Source: Gammaproteobacteria bacterium
GTDB taxonomy: Bacteria; Pseudomonadota; Gammaproteobacteria; UBA9214
Length of the DNA: 64,000 nucleotides
Assembly: GCA_020344335.1 (NCBI GenBank)
Contig: CP070821.1
Coordinates: 1,277,000-1,340,999, forward strand
Direction: 5' to 3'
Within the stretch, counting starts at the first letter, position 1, and the number at the start of each line of letters is the position of its first letter. A program made the position numbers and the translations under genes. The notes under the pieces are model-generated. The model was not told where the DNA came from. It was given only the letters and a program-made list of their open reading frames with translations, and searched no databases. This document shows, piece after piece, positions 27,934-34,919 of this stretch.

Positions 27934-28620
27934 ATGAGTTCACCAGGCTATAAAGAAATCGTCCACCAGGGACTGTGGCACAACAATTCCGGCACGGTAC
28001 AGCTACTTGGCCTCTGCCCGCTGCTTGCAGTCACCACGACTGTCATCAATGGCCTGGGACTGGGGCTGGCTACGACGCTGACGCTGGTTACCTCCAATGT
28101 CATCGTATCGATGATTCGCGGCCTGGTGCGTCCCGAGGTTCGCATCCCGGTTTTCGTACTGATCATCGCCTCTACCGTGACCGTAATCGAACTGGCCATG
28201 AATGCCTGGTTTCATGAACTCTACAGGATACTCGGAATTTTCATACCGCTGATCGTTACCAACTGCGTCATTATCGGACGCGCCGAATCTTTCGCTTCAA
28301 AACAGACAGTCGATCGTGCCCTGCTTGACGGCCTTGCAATGGGGATCGGCTTTACCCTGGTACTGGTCATCCTGGGTGGCATGCGCGAGCTGTTCGGTCA
28401 GGGAACCCTGCTTGCCCAGGCACATCTCATGTTCGGCGAGGCCGGCAAGATGCTGACGCTGACCATCCTGGATGACTACCGTGGCTTTCTGCTGGCGATC
28501 CTGCCACCCGGCGCCTTTATCGGTCTCGGCCTGATAATTGCCGGCATGAACATCATCAATGCCCGCCGCGAACGCACGGCGGCGGGAAAACTGCCGGTCG
28601 TACAACCCTCGAAAGCCTGA
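27934..28620 (+). CDS. rnfE: Rnf complex subunit E
   Basis: 228 aa, RnfE/NqrD family, paralogous to rnfA (LGLCPLLAVTTT). Confidence 0.9.
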   Translation: MSSPGYKEIVHQGLWHNNSGTVQLLGLCPLLAVTTTVINGLGLGLATTLTLVTSNVIVSMIRGLVRPEVRIPVFVLIIASTVTVIELAMNAWFHELYRILGIFIPLIVTNCVIIGRAESFASKQTVDRALLDGLAMGIGFTLVLVILGGMRELFGQGTLLAQAHLMFGEAGKMLTLTILDDYRGFLLAILPPGAFIGLGLIIAGMNIINARRERTAAGKLPVVQPSKA

Positions 28621-28641
28621 CCATACGCGCAGGCCACTGCC

Positions 28642-29277
28642 GTGAATCGCGCCAAGCGACAACAGATTTTCGAGCGCTTTCGCGCCGCCAACCCGTCACC
28701 CACAACGGAACTGCAATACGGCAATCCCTTTCAGTTGCTGGTGGCCGTCATTCTCTCGGCCCAGTCAACCGATGTCGGTGTCAACAAGGCCACTCGCGCT
28801 CTCTTCCGGAAGGTAAAAACACCAAAGGCCATGCTGAATCTGGGTGAGGCAGGTCTCAAGAAACACATAAAGACAATCGGCCTGTTCAACACCAAGGCAA
28901 GCAATATCATCAAGACCTGCAGCATCCTGGTGGAACAGCATAACGGCAAGGTGCCGGAAGACCGTGCCGCCCTCGAGGCCCTGCCCGGTGTCGGCCGGAA
29001 AACCGCCAACGTGGTCCTCAACACGGCATTCGGGCATCCCACCATCGCGGTTGATACGCATATCTTCCGGGTATCCAACCGGACCGGTATCGCGCCAGGG
29101 AAAAACGTGACCGAGGTGGAAAAGCGCCTGTTGCGACTGGTCCCGGAAGAGTTTCTAAAGGATGCGCATCACTGGCTGATCCTGCATGGTCGCTACACCT
29201 GCATCGCGCGCAAACCCCACTGCCAGTCCTGCACCATTGCCGACCTGTGTGAATATAAACACAAGAATATTGAATAG
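28642..29277 (+). CDS. nth: Endonuclease III
   Basis: 211 aa; helix-hairpin-helix region, catalytic Lys/Asp region, C-terminal Cx6CxxCx5C Fe-S cluster; follows the rnf cluster as in E. coli rsx-nth. Confidence 0.93.
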   Translation: MNRAKRQQIFERFRAANPSPTTELQYGNPFQLLVAVILSAQSTDVGVNKATRALFRKVKTPKAMLNLGEAGLKKHIKTIGLFNTKASNIIKTCSILVEQHNGKVPEDRAALEALPGVGRKTANVVLNTAFGHPTIAVDTHIFRVSNRTGIAPGKNVTEVEKRLLRLVPEEFLKDAHHWLILHGRYTCIARKPHCQSCTIADLCEYKHKNIE

Positions 29278-29280
29278 ATA

Positions 29281-29294
29281 TATGTAGTTACATA
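29281..29294. promoter_or_regulatory. Perfect 6-2-6 palindrome TATGTAgtTACATA in an AT-rich leader upstream of the RiPP-precursor gene
   Basis: Read directly from the sequence. It lies in a roughly 200-bp region (29278..29480) of much lower GC than its flanks, about 200 bp upstream of the precursor start. Candidate operator; no regulator identified. Confidence 0.3.
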
Positions 29295-29495
29295 ATAACT
29301 CCCTCTATCCGTATATGCTATATTTCGCGTCTGTAAATTAATGAGAATGCAAATCACTCTGCTTTATCACCTGAAAACCAGAAACTTTCTGATAGCGCCA
29401 ATGTCGTAGTCACTGGAAATAGCACAAGGTCGTGGCAAACGACCACAAACCGGGGCATCGCCCCTTTCCCAACAAACTGTATGGAGATTAAACAG

Positions 29496-29813
29496 ATGTC
29501 AGACAAACCCACAATGAAACCCCTGGCGCTGGCTGCCGGTGCCGTTTTCGTAACTTCACTGGCAAGCACAACGGCCATCAATGCGGCAGAGAACCCGTTT
29601 GCCATGTCCGAACTTTCTAGCGGCTACATGGTTGCCGAAGCCGCCGAAGGCATGAAGAAGGAAGGCGAAGGCAAGTGCGGTGAAGGCAAGTGCGGCGGCG
29701 AAAAGAAGGCCACTGAAGAAGGCAAGTGTGGTGAAGGCAAATGTGGCGGTGAAAAGAAGGCCACTGAAGAAGGCAAGTGTGGTGAAGGCAAGTGCGGCGG
29801 TGAAAAGAAGTAA
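29496..29813 (+). CDS. Bufferin-type (BufA-like) RiPP precursor: Sec signal peptide plus 3x EGKCGEGKCGGEKKATE Cys repeats
   Basis: ATG 29496 is preceded by GGAG at about -10 (track ORF starts at 29481). Predicted signal peptide MSDKPTMKPLALAAGAVFVTSLASTTAINA|AENPF, then three 17-aa repeats carrying 6 Cys, each Cys followed by Gly. Immediately upstream of DUF692/DUF2063/DoxX genes. Confidence 0.75.
   Translation: MSDKPTMKPLALAAGAVFVTSLASTTAINAAENPFAMSELSSGYMVAEAAEGMKKEGEGKCGEGKCGGEKKATEEGKCGEGKCGGEKKATEEGKCGEGKCGGEKK
29667..29810 (+). repeat. Tandem repeat, 51-nt unit x about 2.8 copies, encoding the Cys-repeat core of the precursor
   Basis: Units 29667..29717, 29718..29768, 29769..29810 are near-identical, with only a few synonymous differences (tgc/tgt, ggc/ggt, aag/aaa). 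Confidence 0.9.
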
Positions 29814-29831
29814 TCGGCACCCGAGCTTGTT

Positions 29832-30698
29832 GTGAGCAGTAAAAGCTATCCCGTGAAGGGAACCGGACTTGGACTGCGGCGGACCCTGATGGGTCCGCTG
29901 CAGGACAATCCGTCAGCAGAAATCGATTTTCTGGAGGTTGCCCCTGAAAACTGGATCGGTGTCGGCGGCAAGCTCGGCAGGGAGTTTCGCAAATTTACCG
30001 AGCAGTATCCGTTTACCGGTCATGGTTTGTCACTGTCTATCGGCAGTCCCTCACCCCTGGACGAGACGTTCCTGTATCGCCTGAAGCGATTTCTTGATGA
30101 GCATGATTTTCGTTACTACACAGAGCACCTGAGCTATTGCAGCGATGATGGTCATCTCTATGATCTGCTGCCGATCCCGTTTACCGAGGAGGCTGTTCAT
30201 TACGTGGCTTCCCGAATTCGCCGGGTACAGGATATCCTCGAGCGACGCATTGGCATGGAAAATGTGTCGTATTACGCGGCGCCGGGCAAGGAAATGGATG
30301 AAATTGACTTCATCAATGCAGTCCTGGAAGAAGCCGACTGCGACCTGCTGCTGGATGTCAACAATATCTATGTCAACAGCATCAACCACCACTATGATGC
30401 CGAAGCGTTTCTCAGGAAGCTGCCGGCAGAGCGCGTCGTCTACTTCCACATGGCGGGCCACTTTGACGAGGCAGAGGATTTGAAGGTCGACACCCATGGT
30501 GCGCCGGTCATCGCGCCCGTCTGGGACCTGCTGGAAAAGGCCTATGACCATTGCGGTGTGGTGCCGACCCTGCTGGAGCGCGACTTCAATATCCCCCCGC
30601 TCCCCGAATTGCTGTCAGAAATCAGCCATATCAAGGCCCTGCAATCGAAATCGGGCAGGGATAGCGGCAGTGACAATGGCATCGCACTCCAGAACTGA
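29832..30698 (+). CDS. DUF692/MbnB-like MNIO enzyme (BufB-like RiPP modification enzyme)
   Basis: 288 aa TIM-barrel family protein; N-terminal [12 protein letters not shown] resembles the DUF692 GxGLRxxH region, conserved His/Asp/Glu ligand-rich positions; 18 nt after the precursor stop. Confidence 0.85.
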
Positions 30699-31458
30699 GC
30701 AGCCGGATTTCATTCGTCGGCAATACGAATTTGCCGCCCATATCCGTGACCCTGATAACCAGCCCGCACCGGAGGATATTGAAGACCGGCGCATGGGTAT
30801 CTACCGTGAACTGTTCTTCAATAATGTGGAGAGCTTTATCGCCGGAACCTTTCCGGTCCTGCGGAAAATTCTGGATGACAAGACCTGGCATGCACTGATC
30901 CGGGATTATTTCTCCCGGCACAAGTCGCGCACCCCGCTGTTTCTGGAAATGCCGCGGGAATTTCTCACCTGGCTGGAGAGCGAACGCGACAAACAGGACG
31001 GGGACCTTCCCTTCCTCAGGGAACTGGCCCACTACGAGTGGGTGGAACTGGCCTTGTCGATTGCCGAGGAATCGCTCGATGGGCCCGCAATCGACGGCAA
31101 CGGCGACCTGATGAAGGGTATTCCCGTGCTGTCACCGCTGGCATGGCACCTCGCCTACAACTACCCGGTGCACCGCATCGGCCCGGACTTCCTGCCAGAC
31201 AGCCCGGGCGACAGCCCGACCTTCCTTGTGGTGTATCGTGATCGTGACAATGAAGTCGGGTTTCTCGAGATCAACCCGGTAACCAAGCGCCTGCTGGAAC
31301 TGGTTGACGAGGATTCAGGTGAAACGGGTGAAGCGCTATTGTCCCGCATCGCCCGCGAACTGAATCATCCGGACCCCGGGGTTGTCATCAAGGGCGGTGA
31401 AGAGATACTGAGAAACATGAAACAAAAGGACATCATTCTCGGAACAAGGCAACCGTAA
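30676..31458 (+). CDS. DUF2063-family partner protein (BufC/MbnC-like)
   Basis: About 260 aa starting [26 protein letters not shown]...; overlaps the DUF692 gene by 23 nt (translational coupling); DUF2063 is the usual partner of DUF692 enzymes. Confidence 0.8.
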
Positions 31459-31502
31459 ACCCGTCAAACTTCAATCAATAACGCATAACCGGGAGGGGCA
31501 CC

Positions 31503-32108
31503 ATGACTGGTTTTCTGAACTGCATGCAGGGTTTGCTTGACCGCACAAGGGCGCTCGATTTTCTTGGGCCACTTGCACTGCGAATCTACCTCGCACCCAT
31601 CTTCATCATGGCCGGCTCCAACAAGCTGGCCCATGCCGAGTACCTCGGACCCTACTTTGAATCACTCGGTATCCCTGCACCGCAATTAATGGTCTATGTT
31701 GCCGGACTGACCGAGCTGGTTGGCGGATTCGCCCTGCTTGCAGGACTGGCGGTGCGCTGGATGGCAGCGCCACTGATGTTCACCATGATCATTGCTGCGA
31801 CCACTGCACACTGGGAAAACGGCTGGCACGCCCTGCCGGAGACGGAGCTGACCATGCCCTGGGAATGGCGCACCGATCTCATCGAGGAAGGTACCACACG
31901 CAAGGAAAAGGCCCGGGAAATACTCAGGGAACACGGCAACTATGGCTGGCTGACCGAGGCCGGCAGTATCACCATACTGAAAAACGGCATCGAGTTTGCA
32001 GCCACCTATTTCATCATGCTGCTGGCCCTGTTCTTCACGGGGGCCGGAAAATACCTGAGTTTCGACTACTGGATCGCCCGCAAGTGGCGGCAGGAAGCAA
32101 CCTGTTGA
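31503..32108 (+). CDS. DoxX-family membrane protein (BufD-like)
   Basis: 201 aa, four TM helices, DoxX motif LALRIYLAPIFIMAGSNKL; fourth gene of the cassette. Confidence 0.85.
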   Translation: MTGFLNCMQGLLDRTRALDFLGPLALRIYLAPIFIMAGSNKLAHAEYLGPYFESLGIPAPQLMVYVAGLTELVGGFALLAGLAVRWMAAPLMFTMIIAATTAHWENGWHALPETELTMPWEWRTDLIEEGTTRKEKAREILREHGNYGWLTEAGSITILKNGIEFAATYFIMLLALFFTGAGKYLSFDYWIARKWRQEATC

Positions 32109-32160
32109 CCTGATTGACCCCGATACAAGCAACCGGGGAAACCTAGAGGAGCCGGGGAAG

Positions 32161-33690
32161 ATGATATCCGCCGAATCATTTCCCGTAATATCCACCACCG
32201 TACAGGTGATGGCCGCCCTGTTTGTGTTCCTTGTCGGAGTGGGAGTACTGGTCGCCATCATCCTGTTTGTCATTGACGTGACCCAGACGAAAAGCGCCAT
32301 CCGGCGCAATTACCCGGTCGTGGGCCGGTTTCGTTATTTCTTTGAGCACTTGGGTGAGTTTTTCCGTCAGTACTTCTTTGCCATGGACCGGGAAGAGCTG
32401 CCGTTCAACCGGGCCCAGCGTTCCTGGGCCTACCGGGCATCGAAAAATATCGATAACACCGTTGCTTTCGGCTCCACCCGCGACCTGCGCCCGACCGGTA
32501 CTGTATTGTTCGTGAACTGTCCCTTCCCCACGCTGGGTCAGGACGCCGTACCGGCAAGCGCTATCACCATCGGCCCGTACTGCAGGCAACCCTACACGAC
32601 CAGCTCCCTGTTCAATATATCCGGCATGAGTTATGGCGCGATTTCCAGGCCAGCGGTGCTCGCCCTCTCGAACGGGGCACGGGAAGCCGGCTGCTGGATG
32701 AATACCGGGGAAGGTGGACTGTCCCCCTACCACCTCGAGGGTGCTGCCGATATCGTGTTCCAGATCGGCACGGCGAAAAACGGTGTGCGTGACCTGGAGG
32801 GCAATCTGAATGACGACAGGATCCGCGAAGTGGCTGCACATGAAACTGTCAGGATGTTCGAAATCAAGATGAGCCAGGGCGCCAAGCCCGGCAAGGGCGG
32901 CATCCTGCCCGGCGGCAAGGTGACGGAGGAAATTGCCGGCATCCGCGGCATCCCTCCCGGCAGTGACGCCATCAGCCCGAATCGACACATCGATATCAAT
33001 TCGAACAGCGACCTGCTCGACATGATCCGGCGAGTGCGCGAGGTCTCCGGAAAACCAACCGGTTTCAAGACGGTAATCGGCGCCTATGGCTGGCTGGACG
33101 AGCTGTTCACCGAGATCAACAGGCGCGGCATCGAGACGGCACCTGACTTCATCACGGTCGATGGCGCCGATGGAGGTACCGGAGCAGCACCGATGCCACT
33201 GATCGACGATGTCGGCCTGCCGTTACGCGAAAGCCTGCCGTTGCTGGTCGACAAGCTGAATGAGCATGGCCTGCGCGAGCGCGTCAGGGTCATTGCATCA
33301 GGAAAGCTGATTACCCCGGCTGATGTGGCCTGGGCACTGTGTCTGGGGACCGATTTCGTCGTGTCTGCCAGGGGTTTCATGTTTGCACTCGGATGTATCC
33401 AGGCTCTGCAGTGCAACAAGAACACCTGTCCGACCGGCATCACGACGCACAACAAACGACTCCAGAAAGGCCTCGACCCGCAAGACAAGGCCGTCAGGGT
33501 AGCGAACTATGCGAAAAACATCGTCTACGAAGTCGGGATAATCGCCCATTCCTGCGGGGTCCGGGAACCACGCCAGCTACAGCGTTTCCATGCGCGGGTA
33601 GTGACCGACAACGGACTGTCCGTTGCCCTGAACGACCTGCATCCGGACGTTACCGGGCCGGAGAATGGCAACAGTGCGGCCGGCGCATGA
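32161..33690 (+). CDS. FMN-binding glutamate synthase family protein (GltB FMN-domain-like, membrane anchored)
   Basis: 509 aa; N-terminal TM helix, then a glutamate synthase FMN/Fe-S domain-2-like region (GEGG, DGADGGTGAAP, CxxxC...C). Confidence 0.8.
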   Translation: MISAESFPVISTTVQVMAALFVFLVGVGVLVAIILFVIDVTQTKSAIRRNYPVVGRFRYFFEHLGEFFRQYFFAMDREELPFNRAQRSWAYRASKNIDNTVAFGSTRDLRPTGTVLFVNCPFPTLGQDAVPASAITIGPYCRQPYTTSSLFNISGMSYGAISRPAVLALSNGAREAGCWMNTGEGGLSPYHLEGAADIVFQIGTAKNGVRDLEGNLNDDRIREVAAHETVRMFEIKMSQGAKPGKGGILPGGKVTEEIAGIRGIPPGSDAISPNRHIDINSNSDLLDMIRRVREVSGKPTGFKTVIGAYGWLDELFTEINRRGIETAPDFITVDGADGGTGAAPMPLIDDVGLPLRESLPLLVDKLNEHGLRERVRVIASGKLITPADVAWALCLGTDFVVSARGFMFALGCIQALQCNKNTCPTGITTHNKRLQKGLDPQDKAVRVANYAKNIVYEVGIIAHSCGVREPRQLQRFHARVVTDNGLSVALNDLHPDVTGPENGNSAAGA

Positions 33691-33704: not shown

Positions 33705-34919
33705 ATGGAGACTCCCCACGCGGTTTTCCTGCTGACCGGCCTGCTGGTCCTGGCCATCGTCCTCCAGCCGCTCGCGCGGCGACTGCATATACCCCCCAGT
33801 GCTCTACTTGTCATCGCGGGATTCCTGGCCTCGGAACTCATGGTAGGAGCCGGTATCGACACCGGGGTACGCGCCGGCAACTTCCATGACCTGGTATTCT
33901 TTGTCTTCCTGCCGATCCTGATTTTCGAATCGGCGTATAACATCGATGTACGGTTGCTCCTGCGGAACCTGCTGCCGGTACTGTTCCTCGCCATTCCCCT
34001 GATGCTGCTGTCGGCATTGATAACGGCGGTGCTGGTGTATGCCGGTATTGCACATCCCGGTGGCTTTCCCTGGATTGCCGCCCTGCTGACCGGTGCCCTG
34101 CTCTCGGCAACAGACCCGGTCGCAGTGGTTGCGCTGTTCCGCGAGATGGGTGTGCCCGATCGCCTCGGCCTGCTGCTGGAGGGTGAAAGCCTGTTCAACG
34201 ATGCCACCGCCATCGTCCTGTTCGGGGTCTTTCTTGCAATGGCAACCGGTTCGGGCGGTCCCATGACCTGGACGGAGGCATCGGTGCATTTTTCCAGGGT
34301 CTTTTTTGGCGGCATGCTTGCCGGCGGTATGACTGGCCTGGTTATGGCCGCGGTAATGAAGTTGCTCAAAGACCCGGTGACCCGTGGCGTTGCAACGGTA
34401 ATCACCGCCTACCTGGCCTTCGCCATCGCGGAATCAGTGCTGCATGTCTCGGGAGTCATGGCCGTGCTGGTCGCGGGACTGGTTCTGGGACGCGGCAGGG
34501 AGAATGAAAGCTTCGTGCAGAAACTCTGGGAGTTCAATGCCTGGATCGCGAATGCCCTGGTGTTCCTGCTGGTTGGTGTGACGATTACACTGGACATGTT
34601 CACGGAACGCTGGCTGGCCATGCTGATTGGCATAGCCGGGGTGATCAGCGCGCGTGCCATCGGGATATTTACCTGCATCCCGCTGCTGTCACGCGCACTG
34701 CCTGTCGAGGCAATACCGAGGTCCTACCAGGTCATCATGTTCTGGGGAGGATTGCGGGGCGCGGTTACCCTTGCGCTGGCCCTGTCCCTGCCAACCTCCC
34801 TGGATTACTGGTGGACAATTCAATCCATTGCATTTGGCGTGGTGCTGTTTACCCTGTTTATCCAGGCTACCACGACCGGCCCGCTGATCAGGCATTACAA
34901 CCTCAACAAGAGCAACTAG
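33705..34919 (+). CDS. Cation:proton antiporter (CPA1/NhaP-type Na+/H+ exchanger)
   Basis: 404 aa, about 11 TM helices, with ATDPVAV and FNDATAIVLF motifs typical of the Na+/H+ exchanger family. Confidence 0.85.
   Translation: METPHAVFLLTGLLVLAIVLQPLARRLHIPPSALLVIAGFLASELMVGAGIDTGVRAGNFHDLVFFVFLPILIFESAYNIDVRLLLRNLLPVLFLAIPLMLLSALITAVLVYAGIAHPGGFPWIAALLTGALLSATDPVAVVALFREMGVPDRLGLLLEGESLFNDATAIVLFGVFLAMATGSGGPMTWTEASVHFSRVFFGGMLAGGMTGLVMAAVMKLLKDPVTRGVATVITAYLAFAIAESVLHVSGVMAVLVAGLVLGRGRENESFVQKLWEFNAWIANALVFLLVGVTITLDMFTERWLAMLIGIAGVISARAIGIFTCIPLLSRALPVEAIPRSYQVIMFWGGLRGAVTLALALSLPTSLDYWWTIQSIAFGVVLFTLFIQATTTGPLIRHYNLNKSN

Follow-up and report, generated by a model that had tools for sequence, protein, structure and literature searches.

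A 51-nt tandem repeat encodes the cysteine-rich core of an HvfA-family RiPP precursor whose relatives gain and lose whole repeat units

Tandem DNA repeats whose unit is a multiple of 3 raise the question of what they encode and whether their copy number changes. The window considered here, i.e. the whole stretch of 64,000 nt that was analyzed, carries a 51-nt repeat of this kind, for which the initial annotation had proposed that it encodes a cysteine core and that whole modules could be gained or lost in frame, so tuning the number of metal-binding heterocycles. Tandem Repeats Finder placed the array at 29667..29810 with a period of 51, 2.8 copies, 93% matches, zero indels, and a score of 260, exactly as it had been described, and the same three copies were recovered by a second, separate repeat search of the array. 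A nested 15-nt period inside the 51-nt array corresponded to the EGKCG sub-repeat, a motif found six times in the window peptide. Each 51-nt unit was in frame with the open reading frame and was translated as EGKCGEGKCGGEKK(ATE), three times, yielding the three two-cysteine cassettes of the presumed core. As claimed, the units differed only synonymously, at unit offsets 12, 24, 27, and 33 (e.g. window positions 29678/29729/29780); all four were third-codon positions, and the differences were TGC/TGT, AAG/AAA, TGC/TGT, and GGC/GGT. The sequence GARGGNAARTGYGG occurred six times in the 64-kb window, always within the array, compared with 0.03 occurrences expected by chance.

The gene containing the array was recognized by the NCBIfam model NF050137 (KCGExKCG_twice), which carries the title "HvfA family oxazolone/thioamide-modified RiPP metallophore" domain. 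The match extended over three stretches and reached 66.3 bits, with a cut-off of 19.5; the precursor itself had no Pfam match. Its sequence was identical to that of UCC57373.1, a hypothetical protein of a gammaproteobacterial MAG, and more than 7000 homologues exist. The adjacent partner genes of the HvfA family were all present, with HvfB, HvfC, and HvfX each scoring above the respective cut-off, and the gene order on the same strand was hvfA-family precursor, hvfB, hvfC, and hvfX (Table 1). The locus is an ordinary new member of the HvfA family, also referred to as oxazolin, Buf_EGKCG, or captophorin. The precursor stayed below the cut-off of the NTHi HvfA equivalog (NF050188, 51.8 bits versus 95), and this score together with a missing N-terminal Cys pair identifies it as a family member and not as an orthologue of NTHi HvfA. 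We consider it highly probable that the array codes for the core of an hvfA-family RiPP precursor and that whole cassettes can be added, removed, or overwritten in frame.

Table 1. Features of the hvfA-family locus in window coordinates
Feature	Coordinates	Strand	Remarks
Bipartite box AGAAACTTT-N14-GTCGTA (GAAACTT-N16-TCGTA)	29380..29408	+	Conserved in related loci
17-nt palindrome GGTCGTGGCAAACGACC, leader region	29428..29444	+	Perfectly conserved
hvfA-family precursor gene, 105 aa	29496..29813	+	NF050137 match; orthologues 105 aa
Predicted Sec signal peptide MSDKPTMKPLALAAGAVFVTSLASTTAINA	29496..29585	+	Predicted cleavage after INA
Conserved N-terminal segment of mature peptide, AENPFAMSELSSGYMVA	29586..29636	+	Near-invariant in relatives
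Cys-less pseudo-cassette EGMKKEG	29646..29666	+	Precedes unit 1; same GAAGGCATGAAGAAGGAAGGC segment elsewhere in L082 and L083 arrays
Repeat unit 1, EGKCGEGKCGGEKKATE	29667..29717	+	Cys codons 29676..29678, 29691..29693
Repeat unit 2, EGKCGEGKCGGEKKATE	29718..29768	+	Cys codons 29727..29729, 29742..29744
Repeat unit 3, truncated, EGKCGEGKCGGEKK	29769..29810	+	Cys codons 29778..29780, 29793..29795
Stop codon of hvfA-family gene	29811..29813	+	Directly 3' of unit 3
Antisense "shadow" ORF, 67 aa, GTG start	29617..29820	-	Not a gene
hvfB, MNIO (DUF692) maturase	29832..30698	+	NF003818 and PF05114
hvfC, DUF2063/RRE partner, 260 aa	30676..31458	+	NF050145, PF09836, and PF22106
hvfX, DoxX-family membrane protein	31503..32108	+	NF050144, PF07681

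The precursor consists of a predicted Sec signal peptide, the conserved NPFAMSELSSGYMVA segment, and three copies of EGKCGEGKCGGEKK(ATE). Translation probably starts at ATG 29496 rather than at the upstream ATG 29481, because a GGAG element is located at 29483..29486, 9 nt upstream, and orthologues of 105 aa begin with MSDKP. The signal region was assigned by inspection only, on the basis of a basic n-region, a hydrophobic core, and an AxA-type site (INA/AE), and it is conserved in homologues. In HvfA, the signal peptide is cut by signal peptidase I (PMC11252979). The AENPFAMSELSSGYMVA segment hardly varied between relatives with different cores. HvfC probably recognizes this segment, by analogy with MmrC, which has been modeled as engaging the conserved leader (PMC12538549).

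HvfB reached 445.3 bits against NF003818 (cut-off 360) and matched PF05114 at 4e-105. Its GTG start lies 18 nt past the hvfA stop. Gene callers place the start in related contigs at an internal ATG instead (window 29889; 267-269 aa), but the GTG is likelier, since four orthologues conserve the in-frame peptide of 15 residues upstream of that ATG and the family profile begins to align at residue 11 of the long ORF. HvfC scored 320.6 bits with NF050145 (cut-off 142) and combines DUF2063 and NGO1945_C domains; the first 23 nt of the gene lie within the end of hvfB, and its start was picked by analogy with 260-aa orthologues that show the same 23-nt overlap. HvfX matched NF050144 with 190.3 bits (cut-off 80). 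The housekeeping genes rnfCDGE and nth are located 5' of the cluster, syntenic rnf-nth-hvfABCX orthologues were found in several metagenomes, and the composition profile gave no sign of a foreign island, the base composition being native. Downstream in the window, genes for a glutamate-synthase-domain protein (32161..33690) and then a Na+/H+ exchanger (33705..34919) follow. In one related lineage, an HMA-domain P-type ATPase of the copper-exporter type is encoded directly after hvfABCX (L092, 4257..4962; L093, 2689..3394), which fits a copper role.

The relationship between the repeat units was analyzed at the DNA level. The three unit pairs showed 8 differences, compared with 24.9 ± 3.4 expected if codons for the identical peptide were drawn independently at the codon frequencies found in the window; in 100,000 such simulations, the count never fell to 8 or below. 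The similarity of the units appears to exceed what the peptide requires, although gene-specific codon bias could explain part of it: GAA is the sole Glu codon of the repeat (11 of 11), and AAG accounts for 11 of 12 Lys codons. The longest exact direct repeat among the units was 41 nt. RecA-dependent recombination in E. coli requires a minimum of roughly 25 bp, and the 41-nt stretch therefore qualifies as a recombination substrate.

Comparison with a syntenic orthologue that also has three units (L081; nucleotide identity 88.9% for hvfB and 94% for hvfA) revealed concerted evolution of the units. Both linkers in L081 read ACC ACT GAG (TTE), whereas both linkers in the window read GCC ACT GAA (ATE). 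One change alters the amino acid and the other is synonymous, and the probability of such a parallel linker change under independence was ~0.001-0.008, which points to gene conversion or re-duplication. At the same time, the 5' halves of the units carry TGC in unit 1 and TGT in units 2 and 3, both in the window and in L081; these common unit-specific marks indicate that the three units are real and that the array is old. An ungapped hvfB comparison with a further locus, L095 (about 82%), was left unused as a probable offset artifact.

Rearrangement was also evident from the 21-nt EGMKKEG segment (GAAGGCATGAAGAAGGAAGGC). It precedes unit 1 in the window, whereas L082 has it between the last two cysteines and L083 between Cys 2 and Cys 3. 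The segment behaves like a shuffled Cys-less cassette as judged from its positions. Moreover, gain or loss of exact units was observed in relatives. The hvfA genes of the complete Neptuniibacter genomes CP180549 and CP180550 differed by exactly one 51-nt unit (six versus five cassettes, 12 versus 10 Cys), with hvfB 98.5% identical. Two metagenomic alleles, L092 and L094, were exactly one 48-nt unit apart (four versus three cassettes) with flanks 99.7% identical; each allele came from several independent assemblies, these being short-read assemblies in which repeat collapse is possible and from which no rate can be derived. Frame-preserving gain and loss of whole modules, as envisaged for the window by the initial annotation, thus does occur among its relatives.

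These data bear on the view that the array is static, i.e. that the units resemble each other merely through selection for identical peptides combined with codon bias and that recombination is not ongoing. The identity of the peptide units and the narrow codon set given above agree with such a view. The codon-draw simulation rejected independence, however, and neither the synonymous GAA to GAG change in both linkers of one lineage, nor the differing array positions of EGMKKEG in orthologues, nor the exact unit indels between near-identical relatives would be expected from a static array, which we regard as unlikely.

We further determined how cassette and cysteine numbers vary among relatives. 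Among the best 120 of more than 7000 homologues, the Cys count ranged from 5 to 11, spacings of 16-17 aa dominated, and 103 of 167 pairs with leaders at least 90% identical differed in Cys number; 4-Cys alleles would score lower and could rank below these 120. Eighty genome loci covered Cys counts from 2 to 12 or more. Odd Cys counts, triple EGKCG runs, and Cys-less ghost cassettes indicate that change also takes place at the 15-nt level and by decay.

Closer to the window the picture was different. All three sequences of its 90% cluster had 105 aa and three cassettes. Six cysteines were present in each of the ten relatives whose leaders were most similar (at least 83% identity, among the matches listed), and yet these ten displayed at least seven cassette arrangements, including 2+2+2, 2+ghost+2+2, 2+2+ghost+2, 2+2+1+1, 1+1+2+2, and 2+ghost+ghost+2+2. 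At 79% leader identity, one homologue (P0067) again had six Cys, arranged 1+1+2+1+1, and others had five (P0061), seven (P0059), or eight (P0032). The differing array positions of EGMKKEG imply that the array was reshuffled while the Cys total was conserved, and reshuffling at a constant six Cys argues against free tuning in the window's clade. A scan of metagenomes for near-identical DNA at the leader-repeat junction gave zero matches, and a looser junction pattern gave five loci, none of which was a length variant of the window allele. Comparing hvfB of these five loci by blastn yielded zero matches, probably owing to short contigs or to megablast as the default.

The proposed potential for copy-number variation was therefore borne out by whole-unit indels in relatives, but such variation was absent from the three sequences of the window's own cluster. 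Comparison of alleles across genomes gave the same divided answer: 12 versus 10 Cys in Neptuniibacter, and a uniform three cassettes in the cluster of the window. A rather speculative interpretation, to which we give only a small chance, is that a total of six Cys is held by selection despite continual cassette duplication, conversion, decay, and EGMKKEG shuffling, the unit number elsewhere being a population polymorphism that sets copper capacity. If this were true, the peptide would bind three Cu(I) in fixed stoichiometry or fold into a defined product, rather than act as a copper sponge of freely adjustable capacity.

At the opposite extreme, the array might be a true contingency locus, at which slipped-strand mispairing switches units at high frequency and cells thereby vary in copper-binding capacity. 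The coexistence of 4- and 3-unit alleles in a related population, with flanks of 99.7% identity and several independent assemblies for each, would suit a contingency locus, as would the exact 41-nt stretch common to the window units. Classical contingency loci, however, are short, many-copy tracts, and the window has only three long (51-nt) units. Three units in 3/3 sequences of the 90% cluster and six Cys in all ten closest relatives by leader identity, among the matches listed, also argue against high-frequency switching. Furthermore, the unit-specific synonymous marks are common to the window and an orthologue with an hvfB 11% diverged, which implies that the array was stable for a long time. 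A contingency locus is quite unlikely on this evidence.

It is very improbable that the three-copy array is an assembly artifact caused by a collapsed or expanded repeat. The window does stem from a MAG, the 144-nt array is about as long as one short read, and tandem repeats are prone to mis-assembly. Nevertheless, NCBI, JGI (3 contigs), and ENA data each gave this 105-aa architecture in independent assemblies, the four synonymous sites tell the units apart, and one unit-specific mark is kept in L081.

The antisense ORF, 67 aa with a GTG start, is almost certainly not a real gene served by the repeat, because it had no Pfam match at E ≤ 1, all three antisense frames were open across hvfA in every orthologue checked, whatever the arrangement, and the strong family matches and the operon context belong to the sense strand. 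The three alternative-frame ORFs had no Pfam match, and four of the six frames were open across the repeat in the window. The open antisense frames result from the restricted GAA/GGC/AAG/TGY codon set, in line with the earlier designation of this ORF as an artifact.

Two conserved elements were found upstream of hvfA. A bipartite box precedes the hvfA start by ~90-115 nt. Nineteen related loci each had a single copy of it in the same position upstream of hvfA, among them the distant loci L001, L002, L005, L006, L010, L012, L013, and L020 as well as L022, L025, L028, L030, and L055; across the 19 loci the spacer was fixed in length and variable in sequence. The geometry GAAACTT-N16-TCGTA is that of RpoE/ECF-sigma promoters, and the box may serve the hvf operon as an ECF/RpoE-type promoter. 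A sigma factor gene was absent from the hvf cluster, and a scan of 29200..30000 gave zero matches to the sigma-70 consensus. The second element, the palindrome GGTCGTGGCAAACGACC, had the same sequence throughout L081-L086 and also in three loci further removed, L004, L005, and L006. A second GC hairpin (GGGGCATCGCCCC) comes after it, the two spanning 29428..29464. In L081 the second hairpin was changed on both arms, yet it remained palindromic (GGGCCATTGGCCC). The palindrome GGTCGTGGCAAACGACC could be an operator or an RNA hairpin/5'-UTR structure; an Rfam scan of 28500..32500 gave zero matches. Two "terminator-like" matches were discarded, being either within the part that encodes the signal peptide or on the other strand.

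What the window peptide may do can be outlined from characterized relatives. In NTHi, HvfB and HvfC act on every one of the six Cys in the three AEGKCGEGKCG repeats of HvfA, versions shortened to fewer repeats are still modified, and ~1 Cu(I) is bound per pair of modified Cys (PMC11252979). The modification of the HvfA type has been reassigned from oxazolone/thioamide to 5-thiooxazole, and the 5-thiooxazole (-4 Da each)/Cu(I) chemistry is known only for NTHi HvfA, FonA, and MmrA. In vitro, FonBC accepted a peptide with two EGKCG motifs as substrate but did not modify a single-repeat peptide; this need for a double repeat may explain the double-motif cassette. Copper buffering and copper acquisition have both been proposed as the physiological role, and copper-responsive expression was not found in the Microbulbifer study (PMC12538549).

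The 105-aa product of the window gene has, after its predicted Sec signal peptide, a conserved segment with a probable role in recognition and then three cassettes of 17 residues, each with two EGKCG motifs. By analogy, HvfB, a multinuclear non-heme iron oxidase, together with HvfC would turn each of the six Cys into a 5-thiooxazole, and the peptide would be exported through Sec. With one Cu(I) bound per heterocycle pair, the product of the window allele would accommodate about three Cu(I). In terms of DNA, the cassettes are young or homogenized copies, and unequal recombination, gene conversion, or replication slippage may add, remove, or overwrite whole cassettes in frame, gain or loss as well as overwriting of cassettes being observed in relatives. 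If cassette number sets copper capacity or fitness, such alleles would provide a simple natural dose series for metallophore study.

The system most similar to the locus is that of NTHi (NTHI1441; hvfABC and hvfX). HvfA from NTHi and the window peptide both have a Sec signal peptide (predicted for the latter), three double-EGKCG repeats, and six Cys, and both are encoded with the same three partners, the MNIO HvfB, the DUF2063 protein HvfC, and the DoxX protein HvfX. The window peptide differs in that it lacks the N-terminal Cys38/Cys43 disulfide pair, its repeat period is exactly 17 residues, and its linker is GGEKKATE. In the window hvfX lies downstream of hvfC, and the host is an environmental gammaproteobacterial MAG, whereas NTHi is a pathogen.

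Variable numbers of 17-residue double-EGKCG repeats have been described in the Buf_EGKCG/oxazolin landscape of Leprevost et al., a family whose members measure 31-506 residues, carry as many as 58 Cys, and are encoded in the same four-gene clusters (PMC12452194). The tandem repeats of the window, 17 residues with two EGKCG each encoded by 2.8 copies of 51 nt, agree with the first type of Buf_EGKCG, of which the window peptide is a short member with 3 repeats. The idea of variable copy number is correct but already published at the protein level (PMC12452194, PMC12538549). The words "recombination" and "duplication" do not occur in PMC12452194, and a DNA-level mechanism is not discussed there, so that the DNA-level evidence is a modest increment. 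It consists of within-gene homogenization, exact gain or loss of 48-51-nt units between near-identical genomes, and six-Cys constancy. The locus is one more environmental example in a large, recently characterized family of copper-binding RiPPs, and nothing in it is expected to surprise a specialist. In some close homologues, an EF-hand pair (DADGDGKVTKDEF...) was located between EGKCG cassettes, with cassettes on both sides (L001, 3446..3982; L003, L004, and L006; P0016, P0019, P0045, etc.). Published chimeras carry EF-hands C-terminal to a short EGKCG domain, and these homologues look somewhat different from them.

Fontiphorin (FonA)/captophorins and bulbicupramide (MmrA) share the EGKCG repeats, which in their case become Cu(I)-binding 5-thiooxazoles via an MNIO/PME1 pair. 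Linkers and periods are unlike those of the window: Microbulbifer cassettes have 15-16 residues, and FonA has seven modification sites. Across the genus Microbulbifer, represented among the fetched relatives by L034, L035, L039, and L066, the precursors combine a conserved leader with a variable core of 5-8 Cys (PMC12538549). Bufferins (BufA1, DUF2282; BufA2, Buf_6/12Cys) and methanobactin (MbnA/MbnBC) are more remote. They also bind copper through Cys-derived heterocycles made by MNIO enzymes, but their precursors are not tandem EGKCG arrays, and HvfB of the window was below the BufB cut-off (266.7 versus 310) and far below that of MbnB (42.6 versus 325). Methanobactin contains oxazolone/thioamide groups and is made with a leader peptide rather than a signal peptide, whereas bufferins resemble the window system in having Sec signal peptides and DUF2063 partners.
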